From Ignisphaera sp. (GTDB taxonomy: Archaea > Thermoproteota > Thermoprotei_A > Sulfolobales > Ignisphaeraceae), in the NCBI GenBank assembly GCA_038892955.1, contig JAWASI010000001.1, positions 48,841-112,840 on the forward strand: a stretch of 64,000 nucleotides of DNA, read 5' to 3'. Under the pieces are notes generated by a model, which made no database searches, was not told where the DNA came from, and was given only the letters and a program-made list of their open reading frames with translations. Made by a program: the position numbers and the translations under genes. Positions 12,448-24,963 of the stretch are shown piece by piece. The stretch's first letter is position 1, and each line of letters begins with the position of its first letter.

Positions 12448-12547
12448 ACATCAGTAAATATAACAGGTATTTTTAAGTTAAGTTAGTCCATCACCTGAAT
12501 TTTGGTAACAACATTCTATACTACAGCTAAACAAATTAATTTAGATA

Positions 12548-12621
12548 TGGGCCCGCGGGGATTCGAACCCCGGACCTCCGCCTCGTGAGGGCGGCGTCCT
12601 ACCAGGCTAGACGACGGGCCC
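12548..12621 (-). tRNA. tRNA-Val(CAC)
   Basis: Cloverleaf GGGCCCG...CCGCC CT-CAC-GA GGCGG...TTCGAAT...CGGGCCC A. Confidence 0.97.
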
Positions 12622-12895
12622 ACTAGAGGATGTATAGCTCTAGACATTTTACGCATCATTGCTTAGCTCAGTTTACACCATCTGCTTCTTATGTTGTTAT
12701 TCGCTATGTTTTAGTAGTATTGAGGATTTAAATTTATTTGCAATATCCCTTTATTAGCTTGCTGAATAATGCTTCTTCAACTCTTCTAAAAATTTTAATT
12801 ACGTACTCTATTCGTGGTATTTATTGTACAGCTGAATTAATTGTGATTTTCGGTTGATGTATTTAATAGTATTTAGATATGAGTTGTGTCTTAAT

Positions 12896-13827: not shown

Positions 13828-15231
13828 ATGACAACCTCTAGCGAAGAAAAATGCGTAGTTCATATAGGGTTAGACGACTTCGACCTCTATCTCTATGGCT
13901 GTACTACACATGCTTCAACATATCTTCTTAACGAATTAGCTAAATATATACCGCTGCATTTACTTGATTACCCAAACTTAGTAAGATTGAATCCTTCTAT
14001 TCCTTGGAAAACGCGTGGTAATGGAGCTATAGCACTACGGGTAGAAATCCCTTGTACTTACATAGATAAAATAATAGAATTAACAGAAAAAATATTAATG
14101 GGTTACTACGAAAAACTAAGCACTACATTAAACATAGAGGTAAGTGAGCTAGGAGTTAACCCTGGCGTTATTATAGCTTTAGATCCTTTGCCTAACGTAT
14201 TCCACAAAATATATATACTAGCTTTAACCGATGTTATACCCTATGATATTGCATTAAGTAGAATAAAAAACCAAAACAATGTATTCATTGTTGAGTCGTT
14301 TTATGGAAGAGGGATAGTAGGGGCAGCCGCCGCAATAGGCTGGATCAAACATGATTCTGACTACACCTACGAATTAATTACATATAGATCAACTCAACAA
14401 TACCTAGAACCTCGTTGCTTAGACGTTAAGTCGGTTATAAAATTAGATGAATTACTACATACATCAACTTTCAATAACATAGACCCTGAAACAGGTAAAA
14501 TACTTATAGCGCCTCATAGCTTTGATCCTGTACTCTACGGTATAAGAGGAGATTATGTAGATGAATTAATTAAAGCACTAAACATTGTAAAAACATGTGA
14601 ACCTATTACTGCATGGACTTTATTCAGGTCTAATCAAGCTACAGATGCACATGCAATAGTTAGAAATGTAAATGAGTTAAGAATGTATAGAACAGCAAAA
14701 CTTAAAATAAGGGTGCTTAGTAGACCTGTTATAATTCATGGAGGACATGTTATCCTAAGAGCTGGTGATACAACTGGGTCCATAGACTTAGTATTCTTTA
14801 AACCTTCTAAGTTAGATAATATAGCTAAAAAACTTACCATAGGCGATGAAATAGTTGTGCAAGGACATGTAAAACCATGGAAAGATGTGCCATGCTTTCA
14901 TGTAGAAAAACTTGTTATTGTTAAGCTATCCAAATTATATCAATGCAACGCACCTCGTTGTCCATTGTGCAGTAAAAGAATGACAAAAAGCGGTTTTGGC
15001 AAAGGTTATAAATGTCCATATTGTGGATATACGTCATATTCGCTGCAACCAGAATGTAGAGAAATAATGCGAATGATTGATAAAAGACTTTATTTACCTC
15101 CGCCATCAGAGCAAAAACACCTAATTAAGCCTCTTCAACGATATGGAAAAGAAAAAATATCGCATCCACATCTTAAACCAAAACCGCTAAGCGTGGTCTC
15201 CAAAATTATTGAACCCCGTTGGTTCCTGTAG
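13828..15231 (+). CDS. tiaS: tRNA(Ile2) agmatinylcytidine synthase
   Basis: IGLDD...GCTTH, LVRLNPSIPWKTRGN, NQATDAH, C-terminal Zn ribbon, HLIKPL.RY. Confidence 0.95.
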   Translation: MTTSSEEKCVVHIGLDDFDLYLYGCTTHASTYLLNELAKYIPLHLLDYPNLVRLNPSIPWKTRGNGAIALRVEIPCTYIDKIIELTEKILMGYYEKLSTTLNIEVSELGVNPGVIIALDPLPNVFHKIYILALTDVIPYDIALSRIKNQNNVFIVESFYGRGIVGAAAAIGWIKHDSDYTYELITYRSTQQYLEPRCLDVKSVIKLDELLHTSTFNNIDPETGKILIAPHSFDPVLYGIRGDYVDELIKALNIVKTCEPITAWTLFRSNQATDAHAIVRNVNELRMYRTAKLKIRVLSRPVIIHGGHVILRAGDTTGSIDLVFFKPSKLDNIAKKLTIGDEIVVQGHVKPWKDVPCFHVEKLVIVKLSKLYQCNAPRCPLCSKRMTKSGFGKGYKCPYCGYTSYSLQPECREIMRMIDKRLYLPPPSEQKHLIKPLQRYGKEKISHPHLKPKPLSVVSKIIEPRWFL

Positions 15232-15527
15232 AGAACACTATTATCCCACTAACTTACAGACCCCTTAACTTCTTGTAGAAGTGGTGTAACAATATACGAT
15301 ACAATTTTATATTCAATTATAAAATTAAATCCGTTTAATAAAATTTTCAAGATATATTAGTATTGACCAAATAATCTTTATACAAACTGTAATACAAATC
15401 TGTATTACAGAAATCTTAATCAATATTACAAAAGTTGTGGTGGGGTCTAGAACTAAAACAACATACCATTCAATTCGATATACTGTATTTCTTCAGGATA
15501 TTACTGACCCTTGTGTTTCCTGTAGAA
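15213..15527. other. Putative replication origin (three ORB elements flanking an AT-rich unwinding region)
   Basis: Minus-strand 21-mers CTCTACAGGAACCAACGGGGT (15213-15233), TTCTACAAGAAGTTAAGGGGT (15260-15280), TTCTACAGGAAACACAAGGGT (15507-15527). AT-rich stretch ~15290-15430. Confidence 0.75.
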
Positions 15528-15539
15528 AAGTTGTTGCTG

Positions 15540-15858
15540 GAGCCCGACCCGCAATAACCCGTCTTCTGTCTTAGACAACATTAGGCTTAGCGGGTTCCCA
15601 GCCCTCATACGGATTTCACTGGGCTGGATCCTTACTCTCCAGAGGACGGCCGTTTCACTGCTCCCGCAAACCTCGTCAACGGGTTCTGTCCCCTAGTTAC
15701 CTAGGGAACCTCACCGCATCATCCTCATCGGTTCGCGGACATGTCGTTTCTGTGCCGGAGCCCAGGTATTACCCTGGCCCCTTGCGGGGCTCTGGTTCCG
15801 TACAGAGGACGGTGTTTCCTCGGAGCATAAGCTCCGTAGTTGTCTGCGGGTCGGGCTC
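15540..15858 (-). ncRNA. rnpB: RNase P RNA (archaeal type A)
   Basis: P1 GAGCCCGACCCGCA/TGCGGGTCGGGCTC; CR-I GAGGAAAC; ACAGAAAC; GTGAAACGG; CR-V ACAGAAGACGGGTTA; GC-rich. Confidence 0.95.
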
Positions 15859-15974
15859 TGGCAATATTAGATATACTCTTTATAAAATTAATAAACATTG
15901 ATATAGATCAGAGGTCTATAAGTTTAAATGTGGTAGGTGGAGAGTTCGGATGTAATTATCTACATTTATACTGT

Positions 15975-16227: not shown

Positions 16228-16590
16228 ATGGAGAATTTGTGCTCAGAAAATATCTTGAAAATGTTTGAGGGATATGATAGAATTTTAGAGGCTTTAGCTA
16301 AGAAGAGATTTGTTGTATTAAGTTCTCAAGGTTTAGTCGTATATGTGTTTAAGGGTGTTAAACGAGATTACATTGTTTCACCTTGTAAACTTTGTACATG
16401 CGATGATTTTGTGATAAATTACATTGGCAAATCTCGTTCAACTCCATGTTATCACGTTATTGGGTTTGAGATCGCTGAAAAACAGAATAAGCTTGTGAAA
16501 GTAGAATTGGATTATTCTACCTTAGCTAAGGTAGTAGAGGAGATAATTTTTGAGGGAGTCTCTATAATGCTTAGAAAGTTATTAAGGTAG
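16228..16590 (+). CDS. SWIM zinc-finger protein
   Basis: CTCDDF...PCYH. Confidence 0.75.
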   Translation: MENLCSENILKMFEGYDRILEALAKKRFVVLSSQGLVVYVFKGVKRDYIVSPCKLCTCDDFVINYIGKSRSTPCYHVIGFEIAEKQNKLVKVELDYSTLAKVVEEIIFEGVSIMLRKLLR

Positions 16591-24384: not shown

Positions 24385-24485
24385 GCCGCCGTAGCTCAGC
24401 TGGGAGAGCGCCCGGCTGAAGAAAGTTTGAAGAAGCTGGGTCGTCAGATACCGGGAAGTCGGGGGTTCAAGTCCCCCCGGCGGCA
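24385..24485 (+). tRNA. tRNA-Phe(GAA) with 28-nt intron at 37/38 (24422-24449)
   Basis: GCCGCCG acceptor stem, CCCGG CT-GAA-G[intron]A CCGGG, TTCAAGT T-loop. Confidence 0.93.
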
Positions 24486-24501: not shown

Positions 24502-24608
24502 GCCGGGGTGGCCGAGAGGTCTAAGGCGGCGGGCTGCAGTGGTTTCCGGCGATCCGCTCAGCGAAGAGACCCGTTAATCCCCGGGTTCGAATCCCGGCCC
24601 CGGCTCCA
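24502..24608 (+). tRNA. tRNA-Cys(GCA) with ~29-nt anticodon-loop intron (24540-24568), encoded CCA
   Basis: GCCGGGG/CCCCGGC-T-CCA, GCGGG CT-GCA-G[intron]A CCCGT. Confidence 0.9.
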
Positions 24609-24719: not shown

Positions 24720-24793
24720 GGGCCCGTCGTCTAGCCTGGTAGGACGCCGCCCTTACGAGGCGGAGGTCCGGGGTTCGAATCCCCGCGGGCCCA
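24720..24793 (+). tRNA. tRNA-Val(TAC)
   Basis: Identical to the tRNA-Val at 12548 except at the wobble base. Confidence 0.97.
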
Positions 24794-24963
24794 CTATCGC
24801 TAACTTATACACATTTATACACATTATTTTACCCTACATTACAAAAGTTATAAGGATTCAATTTGATTGTGTTTCTAAGCTTGTTACAAAGGATTCAATT
24901 TAACGAATACTACTTGGATGTACTTAGCAATTTGCAACTCTTTAGATCAACACGTGATGAGAT

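Follow-up and report, generated by a model that had tools for sequence, protein, structure and literature searches.

We conclude with high confidence that the 64,000-nucleotide stretch of DNA analysed here (the window) carries a functional RNase P RNA gene, the only one of its Ignisphaera-type hot-spring host, that this RNA is of normal archaeal type A except at the bulge of helix P4, which is A, and that the A is fixed in the genus and part of a U/A dimorphism whose state has changed repeatedly among the Sulfolobales (in the wide sense of the order) and independently in the Hadarchaeota. Structural and kinetic studies have placed a single nucleobase in the first coordination shell of the RNase P catalytic metal, the bulged U of P4. 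This U is termed 'universally conserved' in papers from 2007 (PMC1874661), 2012 (PMC3488217) and 2025 (PMC12710915); a 2024 review calls it only conserved (PMC11143913).

A cmscan search of the window matched the archaeal RNase P model RF00373 on the minus strand at 15544-15854, with 173.8 bits (E = 7.6e-50) against a gathering score of 84, and the match spans model positions 1-288, the full model. It is the only RF00373 match in the whole assembly (1.58 Mb, 89% complete), so that the gene is present as a single copy. A closing helix P1 of 13 bp extends the match to the gene boundaries given in Table 1. The gene lies inside an ORF-free gap between one flanking gene that ends at 15231 and another that starts at 16228, and no ORF of at least 70 aa runs across it. 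A TATA-like box upstream of the 5' end is a probable promoter. Profile searches of the same genome detected the genes for three protein subunits, Pop5 (PF01900, 30.2 bits), Rpp21 (PF04032, 61.9 bits) and Rpp29 (PF01868, 77.3 bits); the Rpp30 model PF01876 found no match in this genome, and the same model also misses the Sulfolobus acidocaldarius control, so that this negative carries no information. Genes for Pop5, Rpp21 and Rpp29 are expected of any archaeon, and their presence speaks neither for nor against the compensation by protein subunits that the first-pass annotation had proposed.

Table 1. Positions of the RNase P RNA gene, its P4 elements and associated features (window coordinates unless a locus is named)
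Feature	Position	Strand	Basis or remark
RNase P RNA gene, archaeal type A, ~319 nt	15540..15858	-	RF00373 match plus P1 extension read from sequence
P1 closing helix, GAGCCCGACCCGC with GCGGGUCGGGCUC	5' strand 15846-15858, 3' strand 15540-15552	-	13 bp
CR-I, GAGGAAACACCGUCCUCUG	15803..15821 (read 15821 down to 15803)	-	cmscan alignment and sequence
CR-V, ACAGAAGACGGGUUA	15555..15569 (read 15569 down to 15555)	-	sequence and cmscan alignment
P4, three-pair part, AAC with GUU	15816-15814 with 15558-15556	-	
P4, five-pair part, CCGUC with GACGG	15812-15808 with 15563-15559	-	
Bulged A of P4	15813	- (T on + strand)	aligned by cmscan to the model's conserved U in GAGGAAAgUCC
10-mer CCGUCCUCUG, first copy	15812-15803	-	
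10-mer CCGUCCUCUG, second copy	15640..15649	-	end of P10/11-P12 closing strand (GCCGUCC) and start of P7 3' strand (UCUGG)
TATA-like box UUUUAUAAAG (RNA strand), candidate promoter	15878..15887	-	~20-29 nt upstream of P1 5' end; read from sequence
3'-adjoining motif ctgacccttgtgtttcctgt (+ strand letters)	~15506-15525		just 3' of RNase P RNA gene; motif also in L011, L019, L022, L023, L026, L032
tRNA gene (Rfam)	24385-24485	+	
tRNA gene (Rfam)	24502-24605	+	
tRNA gene (Rfam)	12547-12622	-	
tRNA gene (Rfam)	24720-24794	+	
Hadarchaeota A-bulge set	loci L147, L173, L198, L206, L209; genomes G498, G542, G543, G547, G549-G553		
Bathyarchaeota C-bulge RNAs	L182:6744-7037, L189:1090-1383		214-219 bits; GAGGAAAC[C]CCGCC with GGCGGGUU

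Helix P4 joins CR-I to CR-V through a part of three pairs and a part of five, with a single A standing between the two on the CR-I strand; CR-I also holds the 5' strand of P5 (CUCU). The P4 pairing, the reading of CR-I and CR-V and the bulged A had all been proposed in the first-pass annotation, and both the sequence and the cmscan alignment bear them out in every detail. The opposite strand has only G on both sides of the bulge, and therefore no register pairs the A at 15813, which is unpaired in every one. This position is the equivalent of U69 in Escherichia coli, U52 in Thermotoga maritima and U51 in Bacillus subtilis.

The helix itself is held closely across the order. Of 137 RNase P RNAs, 136 have a canonical pair at each of the eight P4 positions, and double compensatory changes are found at pairs 2, 6, 7 and 8, the sets of exchanged pairs being A-U/G-C; G-C/A-U; U-A/C-G/G-C; and C-G/U-A/A-U/G-C. 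Identical P4 letters occur under both states of the bulge, AAC[U]CCGCC 25 times versus AAC[A]CCGCC 23 times. Selection acts on the P4 helix, and less on the bulged base.

The RNA otherwise resembles the archaeal type A RNAs represented by RF00373, such as those of Pyrococcus, Methanothermobacter and Sulfolobus acidocaldarius. It shares with them P1, P2-P3 and CR-I to CR-V, the P4 pseudoknot, in which one nucleotide bulges out after pair three, the S-domain motifs ACAGAAACGAC and UGAAACGGCC, and the presence of one gene per genome together with genes for Pop5, Rpp21 and Rpp29. It differs from the model at the bulge, where the model has U, and at the pair directly 5' of the bulge, which is C-G in 136 of the order's 137 RNAs and G-C in the Rfam consensus (GAGGAAAgUCC). 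Score, P4 with its covariation, P1, and a single copy accompanied by subunit genes all agree with membership of RF00373, the bulge U being the sole exception. Taken alone, then, the gene is ordinary and typical of its genus and lineage.

To place the bulged A among its relatives, we used 138 RNase P RNAs gathered from the same GTDB order (Sulfolobales, wide sense), in which P4 was located by complementarity. Of these, 65 carry A at the bulge and 73 carry U; with Ignisphaera set aside, the A count falls to 49 and the U count stays at 73. All 16 species of Ignisphaera have A, as do 20 of the 21 members of the window's family. Nineteen genera are A-only, 34 are U-only and three are mixed, with both states found in one genus of the Desulfurococcaceae (g42), and A is present in 10 of 13 families. 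Eight of the families are mixed, which sets an independent lower bound on the number of U/A switches. On a maximum-likelihood tree of the RNase P RNA built with the bulge column masked, a tree that is short (~310 nt) and weak, Fitch parsimony requires ~17 changes; when the labels are shuffled, the mean is 46.

These counts overturn the first-pass annotation's view of the A as a rare departure from a nearly invariant U: A is already common in crenarchaeal RNase P alignments, an outcome which that annotation had itself named as a refutation. The A-bulge is a widespread natural variant, normal for the genus and for nearly half of the order, and neither an oddity nor an error. In a scan of all species, described below, the A-bulge lineages that carry names include Ignisphaera, Acidilobus, Caldisphaera/'Hestiella', Thermogladius, Zestosphaera and Fervidicoccaceae, among others, and the Thermogladius RNAs come from complete genomes. 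One A-bulge genome of the Sulfolobaceae may, by its contig sizes, be that of Sulfurisphaera tokodaii, and the U-only families include some with genome sizes like those of Pyrodictiaceae and Ignicoccus.

When every alignment column was compared with the bulge state, each genus being represented once for each state that it has, no RNA position co-varied convincingly; a column in the P2 region came highest, at 0.22 bit of mutual information. Within CR-V, the variant ACUGAA occurs mostly together with an A bulge (10 of 12 cases); it is not required for A, and most A-bulge RNAs, the window's included, keep ACAGAA.

Beyond the order, a pattern scan of the phylum matched 148 of 401 Thermoproteota genomes, and the ~80 recognisable RNase P RNAs from Thermoproteota outside the order, on which the statement that A does not occur there is based, all have U. 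The same scan returned one GGAAACACC match (in genome G310) in a sequence unlike RNase P RNA. A second, global scan applied a stricter pattern for any non-U bulge to one genome per species in 185,579 species. It gave 65 matches, comprising 62 with A, two with C and one bacterial false positive, in Neobacillus soli, where only six of the eight P4 pairs form. Because the pattern demands fixed motifs and gap ranges, this is a partial census, and the scans do not give true frequencies.

Five of the global A matches belong to the Hadarchaeota and both C matches to the Bathyarchaeota, and the RNAs from these two groups score 165-219 bits on RF00373. Among ~36 pattern matches in the Hadarchaeota, A occurs in nine versus U in 27, and very similar RNAs differ in state, as in genomes G548 (U) and G549 (A). 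The position of the C bulge in the Bathyarchaeota is ambiguous, lying inside a run of C's. No G was seen at the bulge among the ~260 RNAs covered by the pattern-limited scans and the order set.

We also searched for the protein-only RNase P known as HARP (the Aquifex type, PF08745, PIN_5 domain), which carries out the same cellular task. The first-pass annotation had suggested that HARP might compensate for the altered base. On this view the A-bulge RNA would be catalytically crippled, and a protein-only enzyme, whether HARP or some other, would take over tRNA 5' maturation or serve as its backup. The idea has some footing in the order at large, where 43 of 151 genomes have a full-length HARP gene (180-265 bits) in addition to a normal RNase P RNA; seven A-bulge genomes have one. 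The HARP genes cluster in families with genome sizes like those of Pyrodictiaceae, Ignicoccus and Fervidicoccaceae. Each genome of the Ignicoccus-like genus also has a second, sub-threshold PF08745 match (~20-25 bits).

Above the Pfam cut-off, PF08745 has no match in this genome, in any of 14 Ignisphaera congeners, mostly at least 97% complete, or in any of seven genomes of the genus Acidilobus; the search itself works, as control genomes gave matches. Since the assembly is only 89% complete, absence from this genome is weak evidence on its own, and it is the 14 congeners that carry the argument. Across the order HARP is found in seven of 62 A-bulge genomes (55 lack it) and in 29 of 72 U-bulge genomes (43 lack it), so that HARP, if it goes with anything, goes with U rather than A, and its distribution does not track the A-bulge. 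The RNA, moreover, keeps every conserved region and shows covariation in P4, and the genes for Pop5, Rpp21 and Rpp29 are retained. On the absence from the genus and this cross-tabulation we reject compensation by HARP, and we consider a crippled RNA relieved by any protein-only enzyme very improbable.

What we favour instead is an active RNA. The A-bulge RNA is the only RNase P detected in Ignisphaera and Acidilobus, and this, with the subunit genes present in the window's genome, argues that it works. Its conservation, and the fact that the genus yielded no second kind of RNase P gene, suggest that it cleaves the 5' leader of pre-tRNA. Most likely, we are dealing with an ordinary, protein-rich RNase P in which the geometry of the bulge would weigh more than the uracil O4.

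The analysis establishes the anatomy, conservation and distribution of the RNA and the lack of HARP, whereas its activity and the role of the A at the metal site are inferred. The helix, the position of the bulge and the A-rich strands GAGGAAA and ACAGAA are shared with the bacterial RNase P RNAs of E. coli, T. maritima and B. subtilis, and the same two-metal mechanism is therefore expected. In the bacterial enzymes the uracil O4 binds metal M1 as an inner-sphere ligand and the RNA works with one protein; the window's RNA has an A, which is without a carbonyl, and belongs to a multi-protein holoenzyme. The reaction would be the two-metal-ion hydrolysis common to all RNA-based forms of RNase P, carried out in a pocket made up of the P4 major groove, the bulge and J19/4. 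Under selection, the constant elements would be the bulge itself and the phosphate oxygens of its backbone. In place of the inner-sphere contact from uracil O4 to M1, the adenine may offer a ring nitrogen or act through a bridging water, or the contact may be dispensed with, and any loss could be buffered by the archaeal protein subunits (Pop5, Rpp30, Rpp21, Rpp29 and L7Ae).

Experiments on the conserved U give this scheme both support and a caution. In the structure of a bacterial holoenzyme with tRNA, the bulged U does not stack within P4, and its O4 contacts M1 (PMC3488217). Changing the bulged U in bacteria costs an order of magnitude or more in activity, with U52C ~13-fold less active, and deleting the conserved U in an archaeal holoenzyme is reported to have a ~13-fold cost at high Mg2+ (Reiter et al., 2012; PMC3488217). 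Given such costs in bacteria, full neutrality of A is not to be taken for granted. In the conclusion of the same authors the U is 'not irreplaceable', and backbone oxygens are enough to orient and place the metal (PMC3488217), a view with which the natural U/A data are consistent. Whole genera with cultured members and complete genomes, Thermogladius for example, carry A, and no protein-only backup was found in Ignisphaera or Acidilobus; cells can thus do without the contact between base and metal, at least when their enzyme is the archaeal one with its several proteins.

Some base-specific constraint nevertheless remains, since the only base accepted besides U is A, with C turning up very rarely and G in none of the RNAs. 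A bulged C could slide along the flanking run of C's by pairing with the opposite G's. Alternatively, the encoded A might be modified after transcription, for instance by deamination to inosine, whose O6 carbonyl would replace uracil O4 as the metal ligand. Such a modification would speak to the fact that the bulge takes A and generally refuses C and G, a preference for which mere tolerance of the A does not account. An encoded G also has an O6, though, and would be expected at the bulge if a carbonyl there were what mattered, yet none was found. We think modification of the base a slim prospect and prefer the plain reading, an unmodified A accommodated by an enzyme that relies on the bulge more than on its base.

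Our search of full-text literature found no mention of a natural A at the P4 bulge; subscription-only papers, including a 2001 archaeal comparative analysis, and the RNase P Database alignments lay outside that search, and we put the chances that the U/A dimorphism has truly gone unremarked at about even. We are likewise evenly divided over the full generalisation, namely that two or more archaeal phyla show a recurrent dimorphism, U or A, at the 'universal' catalytic bulged U, with A in about half of the Sulfolobales (wide sense) and about a quarter of the Hadarchaeota, C rare and G never seen, and that the literature searched has passed it over. If it is true, the inner-sphere contact between O4 and the metal would be dispensable in a protein-rich RNase P, and nature would offer dozens of close U/A pairs, some within one genus and on an identical P4, with which to test the bulged base. 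The many independent U/A switches on identical helices form a comparative set for enzymology, in which metal specificity, temperature and protein dependence can be addressed, and they are also of use to covariance models, which at present penalise A. The wider dimorphism should be of moderate interest to RNase P specialists and is directly testable.

The 10-mer CCGUCCUCUG occurs twice in the RNA, once across P4 and P5 and once further downstream. The first-pass annotation had noted the repeat, which is real, and had thought that it allowed an alternative pairing, which the relatives do not support. In the functional version of that proposal, CR-V would pair with the downstream copy to form an alternative fold or switch. 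A direct repeat of at least 10 nt arises in only 77 of 2000 dinucleotide shuffles (3.9%), which puts the repeat marginally above chance. The exact repeat is limited to two of the 138 RNAs, those of this genome and one close relative (G011); two other relatives share 8 nt at the second site and most share 5-6 nt. Where P4 reads CCGCC, CCAUC or CCACC in relatives, the second site does not change to match, and in the Rfam alignment both copies are already partnered in conserved helices (P4/P5 for the first, P10-12/P7 for the second). On this lack of conservation and covariation we reject a conserved alternative pairing. A functional switch is very improbable, and the repeat is a chance product of sequence peculiar to the lineage.

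The window comes from a metagenome-assembled genome, and the stretch is also present in public hot-spring metagenome runs. A contig from a second sample (X2, depth 4.4) covers the entire stretch with a sole difference, at 15831. Contigs from a different study (X7), with a summed depth of ~165-174, cover 15766-15858 and hold no other letter at 15813; contigs X3 and X4 have coverage that leaves out 15804-15911. That the A is a sequencing or assembly error for a true U has practically no chance of being right, for although the source is a metagenome assembly and the X2 depth is only 4.4, the deep X7 contigs have the same base, and A stands at the matching position in every species of the genus and in 65 RNAs of the order. 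Contig agreement and conservation together rule out an error, conservation across species being the stronger evidence. The first-pass annotation had proposed read-level confirmation of this base, and with contigs of two other runs in agreement the A is confirmed as a real, inherited variant.

One X7 contig has a loose end at 15796, and its tail, GCTGCGCGGGGGGCGGTGTTTCCTCAGGGG, derives from another RNase P RNA in that hot-spring run, distinct from the window's. This second RNA likewise has A at the bulge (GAGGAAACACCGCC).

Two further observations concern the surroundings of the gene. Directly after the 3' end of the RNase P RNA, a motif ACAGGAAAC(N4-5)GGGGTYAG (RNA strand) recurs in several Ignisphaera genomes, and the conservation of this adjoining sequence across species fits a functional DNA or RNA element. 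Elsewhere in the window, Rfam finds four tRNA genes versus two by ARAGORN. The two that ARAGORN missed are ~100 nt long each and are probably intron-bearing. Two tRNA-Val genes, with anticodons CAC and UAC, are identical elsewhere in the Rfam alignment.
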